Below are positions 1,419 to 9,369 of a DNA stretch of 12,765 nucleotides, piece after piece. The position numbers and the translations under genes were made by a program. Position 1 is the first letter of the stretch. Each line of letters starts with the position of its first letter. The stretch comes from a virus (Duplodnaviria; Heunggongvirae; Uroviricota; Caudoviricetes), in the IMG/VR virus record IMGVR_UViG_2634166457_000023, positions 1 to 12,765 of that record; one strand, given 5' to 3'. The notes under the pieces are model-generated. The model was not told the DNA's origin. It was given only the letters and a program-made list of their open reading frames with translations, and ran no database searches.

Positions 1419-3815
1419 TTAAAAATCAGCCTGACTCGGGATCAGTTTTTGCCAGATAGCTGAAACGTATTTTGCCTGGTAACGAGCGTCATCAAGTGCA
1501 TTATGGCGCTCACCTTCGAATGGGATAGCCGTTCTGGCATCGAAGTCTATGGCTTTCCCCAGCTCAACGATTGTGCATACATCGCGATCGTTGTGGTAGT
1601 GCCAGGGGCAGGGGATACCCTGTCGTTCGTATGAACGGCGTAAAATCACGTTGTCGAAGTTGGCTCCATTTCCCCAGACCTGAACAAAAAATTCACCGGA
1701 GTTTTCGGCGATAAATTCACGCAATTGCAGTAGTGCATCATCTAACGGGATTTCATCGGTCAGAATGGCAGATTGCGCCTCGCGTGATTGCTTAAGCCAC
1801 CATTTAATGGTGTCACGATCAATGACTCCGCCAGCTGTTTCCAGATCGATGGTCTTACTAAATTCCGGTCCCATATCTCCGGTTTGCGGATCGAAAAATA
1901 TTGCACCTATTGAGATAATTGGGGCATCGGGATTTTTTCCCATCGTTTCAAGGTCGATCATCAGATGAATACCCGCTCTGCTGGTGGATGTACTTTCATG
2001 ATGACCGTTCACCTTAATTGGGTGATCTGCCGCCTCGCCAGTTTCATTATCGCTGGCGTGATACTGATCACCGCCAGCGTCCTCCTTATGAAGATGTTCA
2101 TTGCCTTCCATTTCCTCCGGATTTTTTTCCTGAGATTCAGCCTGATTTTCTCCATTGAATGTTTCCTGGTATGTTGTGTTGCCCATTACCGCACCACAAT
2201 CAGGGCAGCTACCCCCGCCAGCCTGACCGCAGGCGGTACAAACTTTTCCTTCTTCCGGTTCGCTGTTCTGATGCAGTTTTTCTTCTGTCTGCTGTTCATC
2301 ATTTTCCGTTTTTTTAACTTCATTTGAGGGGATGTGATGACCGGGAATCCATTTCGGATCATTCGGGTCGCTAATCCCTTCAACGAACTCACCACGTGAT
2401 GCTGCCAGTAATTTGTCCGCATCGATCGGAGTTTTGGGCGGAATGTTTTTTCTGGCTTCGTGGAGTTCTGCCCGCAGTTCCTGGTATTTCGCATCAACAG
2501 AATTTACCTGTGGCTGAGCATCTATCGACGGTGTGTCCTGATGATGTTCAGTTGCATCCGGTTCCACTGCTTCAGGCGTTGTCTGTTCATTTGCCATTGC
2601 GCCAGATGGTTGCAGTTTTTCTTCATCATCCTGTTTTCCTTCTTCTGTTACACGCTGCGGCATCGGGGCAGAGGATCGACCGCAGGCAATATCCACGATT
2701 TCCGGATCAGGGTTGGCATGATCGGTTTCAGTAAGTACCTTGTTCAGATATTCAGTGACATGCGCAGGGATGACCTCGATACCAATTGGTGCTTCTTTCA
2801 CGGATGCAACCACGATGGCGCGGGAATAATCCAGCCCGCCAGGCATGGTGATGAATTTGTCGCGGAAAACAGAAAAGGGCGGTTTATTTTCAGCGATAAT
2901 TTCCTCGACACGTTTAGCGTGTGCAGGATGAAGGTTATAGATGTCCACGTCCATTGAACGGGCCAGTACGCCAGTGGCTACGTCGCGTGCCAGTGATGCC
3001 TGATCGTGGATGAAACCGTCGCCGCGATCGGTAAGGTTCCCGCCGCCAGCATTAGCACCGGAAGCCGTGCGGGTGATACGCGAAACACGATTCCCTTTCA
3101 TCCACTCTTTTGTCAGCAGACCGCGATCGGTGTAGTCAGCGTCCAGGTATGCTTCGATAAAAGCGGTCATCATCCCAAAATCTGAATTTTTCGGATTAGG
3201 GAAAACTTTGTCAGTATCACGCACCAGTTTGTGGAGGTCGCGAATTTCCAGCGGGTCGAGCAGGCTGGTTTTGTGGGAAACAGCCAGGGCAGTAACTGCC
3301 GGTAGTTCTTCATCTCGTGCAATGTGTAATGTCTGGAGTTCGTCGCGTGAAACGTGCGTTACTGGTTTTTCGCTGCCGTGTTGAGCAAGCCAACGAATGG
3401 GCAGTTCCTGACCGGAAACAGGCAGGAGCATGCTCTCCTCAATCTCAGTCATGTCTTCGCCGTTGACGTTGGTATTGTCAGTGCTTGCTGGTTTGTCCTG
3501 AACAGAGGGGGAAGGGCCGATAAATGTCATTGTGATGCCATCTTTCCCGCCTTTTTCATAGCGGTTGCAGAATTCCGTATCAAACACGCCTTCTGGCGGG
3601 AGGTCATCAACAACGGGCAAATTGACGCGGACGGGTTTTTTAAAGTCGTCTTCATCATAATCGTTGTCATCCATTGCGGTAATGCAGCGGGAGATTGCAA
3701 CAGATAATTTTTTTGCTGTAGTCCAGTAAAAACCACCTTTAATTCCCAGGCGTTTTCTTACTTTGTCATTTTTTGCTTCGCAATATAGTGCAAATTCTTC
3801 TTTATCAGTGCTCAT
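1419..3815 (-). CDS. Exodeoxyribonuclease VIII-like protein (798 aa): RecE-like N-terminal region, acidic/Cys-containing linker, C-terminal DEDDh (DnaQ-like) 3'-5' exonuclease domain
   Basis: N-terminal approx 400 aa resemble the non-catalytic N-terminus of E. coli RecE from memory ([12 protein letters not shown]...[21 protein letters not shown]...). The C-terminal approx 190 aa (coords approx 1419-1990) carry DEDDh motifs: IDLETMG (Exo I), [12 protein letters not shown] (Exo II), [13 protein letters not shown] (Exo III). A CTAC...CPDC pair sits in the linker near 2195-2245. Confidence 0.85.
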
Positions 3816-4454: not shown

Positions 4455-4512
4455 AAAAAGGGCGGTAGAGCAGTCACGGAGTAAAACTGATACCGCCAAA
4501 CGTCACCAGAAA
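4455..4512 (-). ncRNA. dicF: DicF small RNA (antisense inhibitor of ftsZ translation), with 3' terminator-like hairpin and U-run
   Basis: Minus-strand sequence UUUCUGGUGACGUUUGGCGGUAUCAGUUUUACUCCGUGACUGCUCUACCGCCCUUUUU matches my memory of E. coli DicF almost base for base. It ends in a GGCGGUA...UACCGCC stem plus U5. Located upstream of dicB as in Qin. Confidence 0.75.
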
Positions 4513-6267: not shown

Positions 6268-6546
6268 TTAGGGAAACTGGCGTCTTGCGTGGATCACGTT
6301 TACTACTTCAACGCTTGATGTTGTTACGCGGTATAGAATTATATAGTTAGGGTGGGCCACAATCTCACGCAAGCCAGGTACTCTGTCGCTTGGTGGGTAT
6401 AAATACGGATGTTCGGATAATGGCAGCACACAACCCCTTAATCGCTGCCATAAGCGTTCAGCCGCATCTATGTCGAAACGAGCAATATAACTAGTTATAT
6501 CATCTAGGTCGGTATCTGCGCTTTCAAGCCATAACACGGGTAACAT
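6268..6546 (-). CDS. parE: ParE-family toxin (92 aa), ParE2-like, of a three-gene repressor-antitoxin-toxin operon
   Basis: C-terminal LREIVAHPNYIILYRV...VEVVNVIHARRQFP is typical of ParE/RelE-fold toxins. ATG at 6546 lies 1 nt after the antitoxin stop. The track start at 6642 is rejected. Confidence 0.8.
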   Translation of the reverse strand: MLPVLWLESADTDLDDITSYIARFDIDAAERLWQRLRGCVLPLSEHPYLYPPSDRVPGLREIVAHPNYIILYRVTTSSVEVVNVIHARRQFP

Positions 6547-6547
6547 T

Positions 6548-6739
6548 TTACTGCTTGCTCCGTTCCTTCCGCATTTTAGCAAAGCGTTCTGCCATTCTGC
6601 GCTCAACTTCGTCATGGGGAATTGCTGGGCGCGGATCTGCAAGGCTCGTTGCTACTTTCGCACGCAGCCATTCGTTGTAACTGTTTTCTTGTTCAATGGT
6701 TTCAAATTCAGAAACCATTGGTGAAAGGGCTCTATTCAT
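6548..6739 (-). CDS. Small antitoxin (63 aa), PaaA-like partner of the ParE toxin
   Basis: ATG at 6739 preceded by GGAGGA at 5 nt. Size and position match the PaaA-type antitoxins of paaR-paaA-parE operons described in E. coli O157 prophages (from memory). Starts 20 nt after the repressor stop. Confidence 0.65.
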   Translation of the reverse strand: MNRALSPMVSEFETIEQENSYNEWLRAKVATSLADPRPAIPHDEVERRMAERFAKMRKERSKQ

Positions 6740-6759
6740 GTTTCCTCCGGTTTTATAAC

Positions 6760-7131
6760 TCAGGCGCGGCGGCATTTTTGCGCCGCAATCCATCTCGCTA
6801 TGAGATCTTCCATTGATTCTTTTTTCTGCTTTAACTCGTTGATTATCTGGCGTTGCTCATCCTCAGGGAAGGCTGAAAAAATCTGCAATAATTCCAGTTG
6901 ATTAGACGTTAACCCTGCATGTGGTGGAGAAACCTCCGGTTGTTCTGCGTATTCCGCATCCAGATACCCTTCCGGCATCCCGTATGTTTGCTCTATTCTT
7001 CTGGCAGCCTTTTCTCCAAACGAGGCTCTCCCACTCATTAGTTGAGATAGGTAGCTCTTCTCTTTGGGTGGCAGAGTTTTATCTTTAAACCACTCCTTGA
7101 GACGTAAACGGCGAATTTCTTTTTTTTGCAT
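6760..7131 (-). CDS. HTH (XRE-type) prophage repressor, CI/DicA-like, lacking a peptidase S24 domain (123 aa); possibly also the PaaR-type regulator
   Basis: N-terminal HTH KEKSYLSQLMSGRASFGEKAARRIEQTYGMP. C-terminal LTSNQLELLQIFSAFPEDEQ resembles DicA as I recall it. Divergent from the cro-like gene. ATG at 7131 has no SD but sits 6 nt after a GATAAT -10, so likely leaderless like lambda cI. The track GTG start at 7194 is rejected. Confidence 0.75.
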   Translation of the reverse strand: MQKKEIRRLRLKEWFKDKTLPPKEKSYLSQLMSGRASFGEKAARRIEQTYGMPEGYLDAEYAEQPEVSPPHAGLTSNQLELLQIFSAFPEDEQRQIINELKQKKESMEDLIARWIAAQKCRRA

Positions 7132-7228: not shown

Positions 7229-7531
7229 ATGACATTAAAAGAGTTTATTAAATCATTGAGGGTTGGTGATGCTAAGAAATTCGCGGCCAGACTAGGTGTA
7301 TCGCCATCTTACTTATCGCAAATGGCGTCTGGACGAGCAGCTATATCTCCAACCCGCGCCCTTATGATCGAATCTGCGACGGAAGGCCAAGTAAGTAGGG
7401 CGGAGCTACGACCCCATGATTGGGAGCTTATTTGGCCTGAGTATGCGAGCGGCATTCGTTTGGGGCAAACGCATGTAGTTCATGCTGAAGGTGATTGTAG
7501 AGCATGCTTATCTGATGGAGTTGATTCATGA
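7229..7531 (+). CDS. ydaS: Cro-like HTH protein, YdaS family (100 aa)
   Basis: GAGGAAGG RBS. HTH AKKFAARLGVSPSYLSQMASG and ELRPHDWELIWPE motif typical of YdaS-type proteins. First gene of the rightward operon. Confidence 0.75.
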   Translation: MTLKEFIKSLRVGDAKKFAARLGVSPSYLSQMASGRAAISPTRALMIESATEGQVSRAELRPHDWELIWPEYASGIRLGQTHVVHAEGDCRACLSDGVDS

Positions 7532-7953
7532 AAATCAAGCATGAACACATCCGCATGGCGATGAATGCCTGGGCGCATCCTGATGGCGAAAAAGTACCGG
7601 CTGCGAAAATTACCAAAGCGTATTTCGAACTGGGAATGACGTTCCCGGAACTGTATGACGACAGCCATCCCGAAGCCCTGGCTCGCAATACCCAGAAAAT
7701 TTTCCGCTGGGTAGAGAAAGATACCCCTGATGCTGTTGAAAAAATTCAGGCGTTGTTACCTGCGATCGAAAAGGCAATGCCGCCTCTGCTGGTGGCCCGA
7801 ATGCGCAGTCACAGTTCAGCCTATTTTCGGGAACTGCTGGAGACGCGGGAGCGGCTGGTGAGGGATGCAGATGATTTTATTGCGGTGGCAATTACTGGTT
7901 TCAACCAGATTAATCGCGGTGGCCCGGCAGGAAATGCCGTGGTGATGCACTAA
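7528..7953 (+). CDS. ydaT: YdaT-family protein (141 aa), CII-like position
   Basis: ATGA overlap with the ydaS-like stop. Size and position match Rac YdaT. Family assignment is from memory. Confidence 0.7.
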   Translation: MKIKHEHIRMAMNAWAHPDGEKVPAAKITKAYFELGMTFPELYDDSHPEALARNTQKIFRWVEKDTPDAVEKIQALLPAIEKAMPPLLVARMRSHSSAYFRELLETRERLVRDADDFIAVAITGFNQINRGGPAGNAVVMH

Positions 7954-7976: not shown

Positions 7977-8909
7977 ATGAGCAGCAAGCTTCATGGTCTT
8001 GTCTGGGAAGGGTGCGCCTTCACCGGCATGATCTTATCCAGGGTGGCAGTGATGGCTCGTCTTGCAGACTACAGCAATGATGAAGGTGTGTCATGGCCTG
8101 CAGTAGAGACCATTCGTCGTCAGATTGGGGCAAAGAGTGAATCAACGGTTAAAGCGGCGATAGCGGAACTGGAAAAGAGCGGCTGGCTGACAAAGGAAGA
8201 GCGTAAGGTTGGTGGACGTAACGTAAGCAATATCTACCGGCTTAATGTGGAAAAACTCGAAGCTGCAGCAGCGGCAGCGCGAGAGGCATATAAACCGAAA
8301 AGAAAAATTAGCCCGGCAAAAAATGACCCGTTAACGGTTGACCCGTCAAATTTTGATGGATCAACCGTTGATAAAAAACGGTCGGTTAGGGGGGCGATGA
8401 TTGACCCCGATCCGTCAGTATTAAAATCTGATCCGTCAGATAAAAGATCTTCTTGTCCGGACGCTTCGCAACCGGACCCGCAGACGGCTGAACAGGATTT
8501 TTTAACCCGACACCCTGACGCGGTTGTGTTCAGTGCGAAAAAACGCCAGTGGGGAAGTCAGGAAGATTTGGCGTGCGCACAGTGGATCTGGGGACGAATC
8601 GTGAGTCTTTACGAGCAGGCAGCCAGCGATGATGGCGAGATCACTCGACCGAAAGAACCAAACTGGACCGCGTGGGCCAATGACGTGCGCACAATGCGGA
8701 TGCTGGATGGCAGAACTCACAGACAAATTTGCGAAATGTTTGGGCGGGTACAGCGGGATCCATTCTGGGTAAAAAACATCATGAGCCCGTCAAAGCTCCG
8801 CGAAAAATGGGACGAACTGGTCATCCGCCTGGGGCGTTCGCCTGTACAGCGTTGTGTGAATCACATTTCTGAACCGGACACCGAAATTCCACCGGGCTTC
8901 AGGGGGTAA
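7977..8909 (+). CDS. Phage replication initiation protein (310 aa): N-terminal HTH, repeat-rich middle, C-terminal DnaT-like region
   Basis: N-terminal VSWPAVETIRRQIGAKSESTVKAAIAELEKSGWL is typical of phage replication-initiator HTH domains. The middle encodes DP/DPS peptide repeats over DNA iterons. Lies in the lambda O position. Confidence 0.7.
   Translation: MSSKLHGLVWEGCAFTGMILSRVAVMARLADYSNDEGVSWPAVETIRRQIGAKSESTVKAAIAELEKSGWLTKEERKVGGRNVSNIYRLNVEKLEAAAAAAREAYKPKRKISPAKNDPLTVDPSNFDGSTVDKKRSVRGAMIDPDPSVLKSDPSDKRSSCPDASQPDPQTAEQDFLTRHPDAVVFSAKKRQWGSQEDLACAQWIWGRIVSLYEQAASDDGEITRPKEPNWTAWANDVRTMRMLDGRTHRQICEMFGRVQRDPFWVKNIMSPSKLREKWDELVIRLGRSPVQRCVNHISEPDTEIPPGFRG
8325..8442. repeat. Iteron-like repeats and palindromes inside the replication gene (putative origin of replication)
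   Basis: Four copies of GAYCCGTYAR (8325-8337, 8340-8350, 8409-8420, 8430-8440). Palindromes CCGTTAACGG, TTGACCCGTCAA and ATCTGATCCGTCAGAT. A-rich tract just upstream at 8291-8324. Confidence 0.4.
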
Positions 8910-8949
8910 GTGTTTATTTCAGGTCATGAGGTAATTTTCAGGAGGACTT

Positions 8950-9369
8950 GTGGCAAAAGTTTTTACACAAGAAGAGCGGGAAAAAATTAAAGGGCAGGTT
9001 GTTGAACTCGTACGCCAGAGTGGGCGCGAGACGTTACGACAACTGGAAGCTAAAACCGGGGCAACAAGATATCTGATGAGCGTTCTGGCCAGAGAACTGG
9101 TTGCCAGTGGCGATGTATACAACTCCGGCTACGGGTTATTCCCGTCTGAACAGGCTCGTAAGGACTGGCAAAACGCCCGCAAAAAACTCTCGAGGGCAAA
9201 GCTGAAGAAACCATCTGTGGTTGATCCGGACCTTATCTGGTCATTACCAGACGGAGAGATACGTCGCTATGACAGACGTCTGAACATAATCTGTCGCGAG
9301 TGCCGGAAGAGTGAGGTTATGCAGCGAGTTTTGGTGTTTTACAGGGGTAATAACGGATCAACGATATGA
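8950..9369 (+). CDS. Hypothetical protein (139 aa), possible winged-helix N-terminus
   Basis: GTG start at 8950 with GGAGG 4 nt upstream. The stop overlaps the next start (ATGA). No family recognised. Confidence 0.55.
   Translation: MAKVFTQEEREKIKGQVVELVRQSGRETLRQLEAKTGATRYLMSVLARELVASGDVYNSGYGLFPSEQARKDWQNARKKLSRAKLKKPSVVDPDLIWSLPDGEIRRYDRRLNIICRECRKSEVMQRVLVFYRGNNGSTI

Follow-up and report, generated by a model that had tools for sequence, protein, structure and literature searches.

A predicted lambda-style replication origin inside the initiator gene of a Rac/Qin-like prophage of Escherichia coli

Origins embedded in initiator genes

In phage lambda, the replication origin (ori-lambda) comprises four iterons of 18-19 bp (ITN1-4) and a 38-bp AT-rich tract, which lie within gene O and are bound by the O protein. 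The C-terminal domain of O is the part that recruits P-DnaB, and the lambda ori-minus mutations r93, r96 and r99 are small in-frame deletions between iterons. Origins are likewise found inside the initiator gene in P22 (gene 18) and SPP1 (oriL in gene 38). The number of iterons is not the same in all relatives of lambda. The Stx phages 933W and P27 carry six, their O protein is 13 aa longer than lambda O, and this natural variation in iteron number therefore alters the length of the initiator as well (PMC7466680). Cloned lambda iterons can also silence the replication of related phages (PMC3349717). For P1, oriL was postulated to lie within repL (PMC9948254).

Here, we focus on a stretch of 12,765 nucleotides (the window) which represents a Rac/Qin-like lambdoid prophage of E. 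coli. Its replication initiator gene, taken from the list of open reading frames (7977-8909, + strand), encodes an O-like mosaic protein of 310 aa, which RefSeq labels a 'helix-turn-helix domain-containing protein' and nothing further. The gene is anything but rare: of 5426 complete E. coli genomes, more than 3000 have a prophage that it matches, and about 1500 carry most of its length. An earlier note on this DNA had proposed that iteron-like repeats and palindromes within the gene form an origin arranged as in lambda. Such an arrangement is well known, but apparently no report of it exists for this family of HTH_36 initiators: a search of the literature on oriJ, ydaU, SfII/SfIV and prophage-initiator iterons, exclusive of Potrykus et al. 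(2000, Plasmid 44:111), found no published account of the family's origin.

The initiator begins with an HTH_36 winged-helix N-domain, followed by a linker whose coding sequence holds the repeats, then by a C-domain of the lambda O type and lastly by a DnaT-like tail. The helix-turn-helix core of the N-domain, the presumed reader of the iterons, is encoded at 8049-8189 on the + strand (Pfam HTH_36, aa 25-71, E 9e-8). N-domains of the same type are found in SfII, SfIV and phiP27, and relatives show weak matches to the DnaD_N, RP-C and MarR/GntR winged helices, those to DnaD_N and RP-C being sub-threshold. HTH_36 is the sole Pfam match of the window protein. Phage_rep_O (PF04492), which lambda O itself matches with an E-value of 6e-36, is absent from it, and the Rep_3-type double winged helix of iteron-plasmid Rep initiators (Rep_3, RepA or pi type) finds no Pfam match at E 0.01 or better. 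BLASTP detects no similarity between the N-terminal parts of the window initiator and lambda O, whereas the C-domain (8490-8825, + strand) is homologous to that of lambda O, with aa 172-283 aligning to lambda O aa 171-270 at 39% identity over 112 aa (E 2e-25). The protein as a whole matches PHROG 391, 'replication initiation O-like' (E 1e-115). Its C-terminal tail, RCVNHISEPDTEIPPGFRG (8850-8906, + strand), is almost the same as the final 19 residues of E. coli DnaT. A single-sequence AlphaFold2 model of the initiator had a mean pLDDT of 38 and was unusable.

The likeness to lambda proposed in the earlier note stood up well. The repeats span codons 117-158, flanked by the HTH_36 match on one side and the O-like domain on the other. 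Codon 117 is also where the annotated iterons of lambda begin (lambda O codons 117-145), and the same repeat finder recovers these iterons as a positive control. In both phages the individual repeats are dyad-symmetric, and the gene is found downstream of cro and cII-like genes in a rightward early operon; as in lambda, the DNA that would melt most readily, in the window a candidate element, is situated on the right of the repeats. The differences are equally clear. Besides the HTH_36 winged helix in place of Phage_rep_O, the window has a 10-bp core with an exact 15-bp period where lambda has spacings of 20-24 bp, a candidate AT-rich element much weaker than its 38-bp high-AT counterpart in lambda, and two conserved GATC boxes. 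Furthermore, no P gene follows the window initiator, and its DnaT-like tail has no counterpart in lambda O.

Comparison with other systems gives a similar mixture. Alleles of the window family (310, 315 and 320 aa) vary in length much as the O proteins of the Stx phages do, but 933W and P27 carry a true lambda-type O with its iterons, whereas the window belongs to a different N-domain/iteron family. The Rac prophage of K-12 is of the same type and has the same gene order (repressor, ydaS, ydaT, initiator), and its YdaU protein shares the C-terminal IPPGFRG tail and also has repeats in the middle of its gene. However, the N-domain of YdaU is DUF1376 rather than HTH_36, and its repeats (AACAGATGTTCAA, with 33-bp spacing) are unrelated to those of the window. 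The initiator was therefore rejected as an orthologue of K-12 YdaU, the N-domains being unrelated and only the last 19 residues alignable, and for the same reasons the oriJ literature is not directly transferable. With HannyBb and mEp460-type phages the window shares the C-terminal half of the gene and a DUF977/Ren-like gene next to it, but HannyBb has an unrelated N-domain and 23-bp repeats of its own. P22, SPP1 and P1 resemble the window in that a cis site is embedded in the gene for its trans factor, although their initiator families and repeat architectures are different.

Layout of the repeats and alleles of the array

The earlier note had drawn attention to four copies of GAYCCGTYAR, and these indeed all lie at 8325-8439 and are the only occurrences in the 12.8-kb window (4 observed against 0.22 expected, a number reached in 0 of 200 shuffles). 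The longer TTGAYNNRTCAA is present in two copies, at 8338 and 8353, where 0.10 would be expected, and Tandem Repeats Finder reports a 21-bp tandem at 8409-8450. Three palindromes had been named as well. They are present, but they are interrupted or imperfect, and the emphasis placed on one of them, CCGTTAACGG, was not borne out: most close alleles read CCGTTAACAG instead, and a palindrome which is not conserved even among close alleles is best regarded as incidental.

The true repeat unit is a 10-bp interrupted palindrome, TGAYNNRTCA. It forms an array at 8324-8363 with an exact period of 15 bp (five codons), and two GATC boxes follow at 8408-8438. A scan with the core pattern places core 1, a degenerate TGACCCGTTA with 7 of the 8 specified bases, at 8324-8333; core 2, TGACCCGTCA inside TTGACCCGTCAA, at 8339-8348; and core 3, TGATGGATCA inside TTGATGGATCAA and containing a GATC, at 8354-8363. 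In the same 15-bp register, a decayed fourth unit (TGATAAAAAACGGTC, 8369-8383) has kept its left half-site only. Box 1 (CGATCCGTCA, 8408-8417), recognized from the codons of homologues, is part of a family-wide GATCCRTCAGTA element, while the core scan finds a full core, TGATCCGTCA inside ATCTGATCCGTCAGAT, in box 2 (8429-8438); both boxes contain a GATC, and their cores at 8408 and 8429 are 21 bp apart. Cores with at least 7 of the 8 specified bases number five in the window allele and seven in the common allele. The loosest core pattern taken by itself is not significant in the window (3 against 1.0 expected, with 18 of 200 shuffles reaching 3), and the repeats owe their significance to the longer patterns, to their phasing and to comparative evidence. 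A promoter scan found nothing inside the repeats. A perfect DnaA box, TTTTCCACA, is present at 8246-8254 on the - strand but was dismissed, since the window has about as many matches to the DnaA box as chance predicts (29 against 26 expected), and this site is not conserved in homologues.

The gene is a mosaic. To the right of a junction at 8440-8445, defined by a three-way alignment and by a megablast match that starts at query position 466 (window 8442), the DNA is about 90% identical to that of phage HannyBb. HannyBb has the same C-domain, an unrelated N-domain and, at the equivalent place, five 23-bp repeats of the form CATCGGGTCAAAATGnnnCGATG, and the junction between the two falls at the right edge of the repeats. 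The repeats thus change when the N-domain changes and the C-domain stays. Within the HTH_36 type, subgroups with different recognition helices likewise have different repeats, and the DUF1376 N-domain of YdaU is accompanied by yet another. From these comparisons, the iteron sequence appears to be specific to the initiator N-domain and inherited with it.

The repeats are very probably iterons, that is, putative initiator-binding sites of a lambda-style origin inside the initiator gene. We predict, with a probability of roughly 0.8, that 8324-8458, in the linker-coding part of the gene, is the replication origin of the prophage. Every computational test capable of refuting an origin within the initiator gene came out in its favor.

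Whether the copy in the window is still a good origin is a separate matter. Initiator alleles of 320, 315, 313 and 310 aa differ by 15, 30 or 21 bp, always whole units in frame; with an iteron period of exactly five codons, units can be added or removed without ever disturbing the frame. AACGGTTGACCCGTCAAAT has a single copy in the window and two copies, spaced by 30 bp, in the common 320-aa allele, and alignment with JP538, ARS-C301 and UMNF18 places the scar of a 30-bp (two-unit) deletion at 8333-8351. The window allele is therefore left with three array cores instead of five, and with two of the usual five units lost the origin may be weakened. The gene directly after the initiator is a DUF977 gene, at the position where JP538, UMNF18 and GN02050 carry a gene for a DnaC-like ATPase, and neither the gene neighborhood nor Pfam reveals a helicase-loader gene after the initiator in the window. 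With three cores and no such gene, the origin may not fire at all.

It is accordingly conceivable, if on the whole unlikely, that the array is the origin of the family but that the window holds a dead or weakened remnant of it. The 30-bp deletion resembles the in-frame iteron deletions of lambda ori-minus mutants, and the allele is rare: among the 80 closest IMG/VR alleles, 63 encode 320 aa, 13 encode 315 aa and none 310 aa. A 74-nt query across the deletion junction points the same way. Of the 1475 records that it matched in complete E. coli genomes, 17 reach the top band of identity, the only informative one since the repeats allow alignment in a shifted register, and about 7 of these 17 match without a gap. 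However, the frame is unbroken, and neither the cores that are left nor the two boxes have been mutated. Two independent 30-bp deletions are found among the alleles, so that two-unit-short forms have arisen at least twice, and they persist in different prophage backgrounds. Natural homologues have anywhere from 2 to 8 array units, and lambda with four iterons and the Stx phages with six are both functional (PMC7466680). Active phages such as HannyBb likewise have no loader gene beside their O-like initiator.

Constraint on the repeat DNA

The A-rich tract which the earlier note had placed upstream of the repeats (ATAAACCGAAAAGAAAAATTAGCCCGGCAAAAAAT, 8290-8324, + strand) is real, with an AT skew of 0.65-0.68 and a GC content of 0.375-0.45, but the weight given to it was not borne out, since other DNA in the gene is less stable. 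Stability is lowest over 30-40 bp at 8414-8458, a candidate unwinding element which overlaps the 21-bp tandem and adjoins the array on its right, as in lambda. In the nearest-neighbor profile it is among the least stable 2% of 30-40-bp windows, although it is only 65% A+T (GC 0.35) and intergenic DNA elsewhere in the window is less stable. Four GATC sites are clustered here (8359, 8409, 8430 and 8446), the last two within the candidate element. The cluster is unexceptional in the window alone, which has a similar one at 2674-2723, and gains weight only from its conservation across homologues: 33 of 37 have two to three GATC per 72 nt at this place, against 0.24 expected.

Clustered and conserved GATC sites, in an array over which the early rightward transcript has to pass, could also be expected if the sites were bound by protein in a role other than initiation, such as autoregulation or a roadblock to rightward transcription, handcuffing or the exclusion of related phages, or SeqA/Dam control. 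The silencing of related phages by cloned lambda iterons provides a precedent (PMC3349717). In known systems, however, this is a secondary use of origin iterons and not an alternative to it. The position of the array is identical to that of ori-lambda, its repeat patterns occur nowhere else in the 12.8 kb, and no second repeat-bearing origin candidate was seen there. We therefore consider an exclusive role outside initiation improbable.

Further evidence comes from 42 homologues, chosen so that their N-domain DNA is less than 95% identical pairwise. At the protein level their N-domains are 43-100% identical to that of the window, and their genera include Erwinia, Edwardsiella, Proteus, Providencia, Yersinia, Kosakonia and Gilliamella. 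The repeats are not missing from these relatives. The same kind of array is found with 0-11 sites per gene, most often 4-9, and 36 of the 42 have at least four sites in the same linker. Adjacent sites are spaced by exactly 15 bp in 111 cases, and the linker has 2.09 sites per 100 nt compared to 0.13 elsewhere in the genes.

Could the repeats nevertheless be a mere by-product of a tandem D-P-S-x-x peptide in a disordered linker, multiplied by slippage in DNA that has no function of its own? The units are always read in the same frame, they encode D-P-S in a low-complexity, probably flexible segment, and their copy number is unstable. Moreover, concerted evolution could hold codons identical within an array, and the constant frame means that conservation of protein and of DNA are partly confounded. 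Comparison of repeat conservation with synonymous-site variation, a check suggested in the earlier note, nonetheless revealed strong constraint at the DNA level. In the D-x-S units of the linker serine is encoded by TCA in 180 of 204 cases (88%), compared to 91 of 647 (14%) in the remainder of these genes (Fisher p 1e-86, from counts inflated by the shared ancestry of array units). The residue over the center of the palindrome varies (P, A, G, T and others), with a purine as its third base in 168 of 204; thus, the bases needed to complete the palindrome persist even though residues at the center and flanks change.

The box GAT-CCR-TCA-GTA (GATCCRTCAGTA) is nearly invariant across genera between which nearby synonymous sites have been randomized. 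At conserved residues of the N-domain the commonest codon is used only 51% of the time, whereas in 37 diverse homologues the box has GAT in 37/37, CCG or CCA in 37/37, serine as TCA in 30/30 and valine as GTA in 33/34. Where Gln, Leu or Tyr has replaced the serine, the final A is still retained. Close relatives agree: among 35 distinct 963-nt alleles, 2 of the only 28 third-codon positions in half-sites are variable compared to 96 of the 258 situated elsewhere in the gene (p 0.0012), a fivefold lower polymorphism. In addition, the repeats switch with the N-domain and not with the neighbor of the linker on its C-terminal side. At the level of codon choice and polymorphism, these comparisons show selection to act on the repeat DNA itself, and a by-product of the peptide is highly improbable.

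Least probable is an element which acts as a folded single strand (an mRNA hairpin for translation, a DNA cruciform or a primosome assembly site), for while the predicted ssDNA fold (-27 kcal/mol, z -3.98) is much better than that of shuffled controls and includes an 18-nt inverted repeat (8333-8350 with 8352-8369) that is 89% complementary, it is the half-sites TGAY and RTCA themselves that are conserved and not their pairing through compensatory changes, the central dinucleotides are variable and not self-complementary, no two genes need form the same long hairpin, as their units vary in number and arrangement, and the initiator gene has no Rfam match.

A proposed mechanism and its implications

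If 8324-8458 is an origin of the lambda type, we infer initiator binding, unwinding, helicase recruitment and firing as follows. Dimers of the initiator would bind the TGAYNNRTCA palindromes through their HTH_36-type N-terminal winged helix, occupying the three phased cores at 15-bp spacing and the two GATC-box cores. The resulting nucleoprotein complex would strain the adjacent, easily melted DNA at 8414-8458, which holds two of the four clustered Dam sites. The lambda-O-type C-domain, possibly together with the DnaT-like tail, would then bring in the DnaB helicase by way of a DnaC-like loader, encoded by the phage itself in relatives but necessarily that of the host for the window prophage. 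Rightward transcription from the cro/ydaS promoter would cross the site, as it does in lambda.

Since a single unequal crossover would change both the number of cis sites and the length of the trans-acting linker, the array might serve as a dial on origin strength. The window would then carry a weakened origin, in a prophage which has also lost its own loader and relies on an initiator tail mimicking DnaT to recruit host DnaB-DnaC; this is a speculative extension, which we think rather unlikely to hold as a whole.

The general picture of lambdoid replication is unchanged by these observations. They do offer a concrete origin candidate for a class of Rac/Qin-like prophages that is very common and for phages such as SfII, SfIV and phiP27, and they identify a frame-neutral iteron design with a 15-bp period. 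An O-type initiator that carries its own origin would explain the length polymorphism of the protein. Alongside lambda, the lambdoid series gains further pairs of N-domain and iteron, namely the HTH_36 type, the HannyBb type and the YdaU candidate, and such pairs would be useful for studying how the specificity of initiators evolves.

The prophage and its initiator gene

The window belongs to a lambdoid E. coli prophage of the Rac/Qin-like kind. With annotated close relatives as guide, an integrase (1-1119) and a RecE-type exonuclease (1419-3815) were identified, both on the minus strand, as is the DicF antisense RNA at 4460-4511 (Rfam RF00039, 74 bits). Because dicB and ydfC homologues adjoin DicF in related annotated loci, this region is marked as Qin/Kim-like. 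By coordinate transfer from a 95%-identical annotated locus (L137), the immunity region (6268-7131, minus strand) was assigned a putative RelE/ParE-family toxin, RelB-type antitoxin and small regulator, a set resembling the paaR2-paaA2-parE2 module of O157 cryptic prophages; these genes lie upstream of the ydaS-like cro gene and divergent from it. The cro-like YdaS gene (7229-7531) and the YdaT gene (7528-7953) precede the initiator ORF (7977-8909), and directly downstream is a DUF977 gene (8950-9369; PHROG 'Ren-like exclusion protein'). None of the complete E. coli genomes of the collection contains the whole window, the best match having 81% coverage and 95% identity.

The 310-aa initiator has three recognisable parts. 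Its N-terminal part matches Pfam HTH_36 (aa 25-71), and aa 172-283 are 39% identical to aa 171-270 of lambda O (E 2e-25); when both proteins were compared, no similarity was found between their N-terminal parts. The full length matches PHROG 391 'replication initiation O-like' (E 1e-115). Pfam Phage_rep_O, in contrast, is matched by lambda O and not by this protein. It is thus an initiator of the O type, with a DNA-binding head of another kind, and by its sequence is outside both the lambda O N-domain family and the YdaU family. Its RefSeq name is only 'helix-turn-helix domain-containing protein'.

At its very C-terminus, E. coli DnaT reads RDVNTVSEPDSQIPPGFRG (PDB 2ru8, 9zbt), and the last 19 residues of the initiator (8850-8906), RCVNHISEPDTEIPPGFRG, match this almost exactly. 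K-12 YdaU, the O-like protein of phage HannyBb and the initiator of a further compared locus (L005), whose N-domains are unrelated, also end in this tail; it is missing from lambda O. It may be a short motif by which prophage initiators are linked to a primosome partner of the host; the way in which DnaT recruits DnaB/DnaC is not yet understood (PMC13377028).

A candidate origin within the gene

An earlier note had pointed to four clustered copies of GAYCCGTYAR. All four in the 12.8 kb do lie at 8325-8439, with 0.22 expected and none of 200 shuffles reaching four. TTGAYNNRTCAA occurs twice (0.10 expected), and a 21-bp tandem spans 8409-8450. The palindromes of that note are present as well, although interrupted, and CCGTTAACGG is unconserved even among close alleles. 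The underlying unit is instead a 10-bp core, TGAYNNRTCA, with a period of exactly 15 bp: array cores start at 8324 (one mismatch), 8339 and 8354, followed by a decayed unit at 8369, and two further cores, at 8408 and 8429, are 21 bp apart.

This arrangement is reminiscent of the lambda origin, in which iterons and an AT-rich tract lie mid-gene in O and are bound by O (PMC7466680, PMC3349717). Besides the O-type C-domain, the two share the position of the first repeat, codon 117 in either gene; the four annotated iterons of the lambda record (39034-39118) cover O codons 117-145 and were recovered as ITN1-4, a positive control, by the repeat finder used for the other genes. Spacing differs, being 20-24 bp in lambda, 23-24 bp in HannyBb and 15 bp in the window array. 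From sequence comparison, we consider it probable (roughly 0.8) that these repeats serve as the sites at which the initiator binds the putative origin of the HTH_36 family, an origin that appears to be undescribed in the searchable literature. Secondary uses of the sites, such as a transcriptional roadblock or the exclusion of related phages, which has been seen with lambda iterons (PMC3349717), would go together with an origin and do not compete with that reading.

The gene's stability minimum over 30-40 bp lies at 8414-8458, directly beside the array on its right, and falls within the lowest 2% in stability of stretches of that length in the 12.8 kb. At only 65% A+T, this candidate unwinding element is far from the 38-bp high-AT tract of lambda (PMC3349717). 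Four GATC sites fall within 91 bp (8359-8449). A similar cluster occurs elsewhere in the window, but this one is conserved: of 37 homologues, 33 carry two or three GATC sites in the 72 nt surrounding the boxes (the cores at 8408 and 8429), against 0.24 expected. Where the 21-bp tandem ends, the bottom strand of 8446-8458 (GATCTTTTATCTG) agrees with the oriC 13-mer consensus, GATCTnTTnTTTT, at 9 of the 11 specified bases; it is conserved in the closest subgroup only and may be a chance match. Just right of the candidate element, an inverted repeat (GTCCGG-N10-CCGGAC, 8456-8477) has a position that recalls the palindrome to the right of lambda's AT-rich tract. In the alignment, 8456 to ~8510 is conserved as DNA even in phages with a different N-domain; since the inverted repeat encodes the invariant peptide PDASQPD, the protein alone may account for this conservation.

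The window's own copy may no longer fire. Its array is down to three cores from the usual five and, unlike the related loci of JP538, UMNF18 and GN02050, it has no P-like or DnaC-like helicase-loader gene after the initiator (8910-9369); in these and in 2017C-4173W12, a DnaC-like 'ATP-binding protein' gene and a DUF1627 gene are inserted there. The loader-less layout is shared with ARS-C301. HannyBb, an isolated phage, has it too, which speaks against decay of the window copy. The short allele is itself unusual. Among the nearest 80 IMG/VR loci, the product has 320 aa in 63, 315 aa in 13, 313 aa in one (a single 21-bp box lost) and 310 aa in none. Close alleles differ by whole units, and with a period of five codons their gain or loss never breaks the frame. 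The window allele lacks 30 bp found in the 320-aa allele between two copies of a 19-bp direct repeat, AACGGTTGACCCGTCAAAT. The short form is rare: for the junction, 17 of 1475 matching genomes are in the highest identity band and ~7 show an ungapped match. Its size class recurs in E. coli GN02050, with the same units kept, and in 2017C-4173W12, where different units are kept and the deletion is therefore independent; the immunity regions of these two differ.

Conservation and constraint

The earlier note had counted homologous initiators without repeats against its reading; this objection fails, because the linkers of relatives carry cores, most commonly at 15-bp spacing. Phages vB_EcoM-720R4 and vB_EcoS-733R5, with an N-domain of the window kind (58-64% whole-gene protein identity), have five to seven 15-bp units, TCTGAYNNRTCAAAA, at the place of the array, and share with the window the pair of GATCCGTCAG boxes. 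A scan of one genome per species gave 48 loci with 43% to 77% N-domain identity to the window, found in Erwinia, Edwardsiella, Mixta, Kosakonia, Enterobacter, Yersinia, Proteus, Providencia, Serratia and Gilliamella, among others. In a comparison set of 42 genes (N-domain DNA <95% identical), 36 have at least four linker cores; per 100 nt, the linkers contain 2.09 cores and the rest of the genes 0.13. Neighbouring cores are most commonly exactly 15 bp apart (111 cases), then 21, 24 and 33 bp.

As a single strand the region folds well (z -3.98), which would favour a folded strand as the functional form, but homologues keep the half-site sequences and not the pairing, and the core centres are not self-complementary.

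Since the units always share one reading frame, Asp-x-Ser, constraint on DNA had to be tested against constraint on protein, and four results point to DNA. For D-x-S tripeptides picked out in the linker by protein sequence, TCA encodes the Ser in 180 of 204 cases, versus 91 of 647 Ser codons elsewhere in the same genes (Fisher p ~1e-86, inflated by the units' shared ancestry). The residue over the palindrome centre varies (Pro 97, Ala 42, Gly 21, Thr 14 and eleven others of the 204), and in 168 its codon has a purine as third base, the base with which the right half-site begins. Residues flanking the cores also vary; the base before is T in 129/204, and that after is A or G in 193/204. At 45 conserved N-domain residues the most frequent codon accounts for only 51% of occurrences, and synonymous sites are therefore largely randomised across the homologues; codons of the box downstream of the array are nearly fixed (GAT 37/37, CCG/CCA 37/37, TCA in 30/30 Ser, GTA in 33/34 Val), and where Gln, Leu or Tyr replaces Ser there, the codon-final A is kept, a single Tyr (TAT) excepted. 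The comparison with synonymous-site variation that the earlier note had proposed likewise indicates DNA-level constraint: among 35 distinct close alleles of 963 nt, 2 of 28 half-site third-codon positions are polymorphic versus 96 of 258 in the remaining gene (p 0.0012), and the central dinucleotides at 4 of 14 positions. These codon data contradict an explanation of the repeats as peptide repeats only.

Repeats and N-terminal domains

In megablast against phage genomes, matches were confined to the 3' half of the initiator gene. The HannyBb-type match begins at query position 466 (window 8442), the right edge of the repeats. HannyBb has ~90% identical C-domain DNA and the same DUF977 neighbour, but its N-domain is unrelated, with no Pfam match, and at the linker position, in place of the window's array, are five 23-bp repeats, CATCGGGTCAAAATGnnnCGATG (locus L004, 2346-2461). 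These and the O-like gene are probably another undescribed iteron/initiator pair.

Within the HTH_36 family, two members (L126, from a MAG labelled Proteobacteria bacterium, and L129, from Citrobacter braakii) have a different recognition helix. TGAYNNRTCA cores are absent from their initiator genes; instead, at gene nt 340-500, there are three or four repeats of 33 bp, each based on the palindrome CCTCCAGAATCTGGAGG. Most of the remaining family has one copy of a related element, CCNCCAGAATCTGGNGG, on the upstream side of the GATC box; the window lacks it. YdaU of K-12 Rac resembles the window initiator in its last 19 residues only and has a DUF1376 head. Its gene has mid-gene repeats of its own, four copies of AACAGATGTTCAA spaced 33, 33 and 12 bp apart (locus L007, 2972-3063), which are candidate iterons of oriJ, the known but poorly mapped Rac origin. 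As read from these sequences, every head type is paired with repeats of its own at one place, which is classically what marks a replication-specificity module in lambdoid phages.
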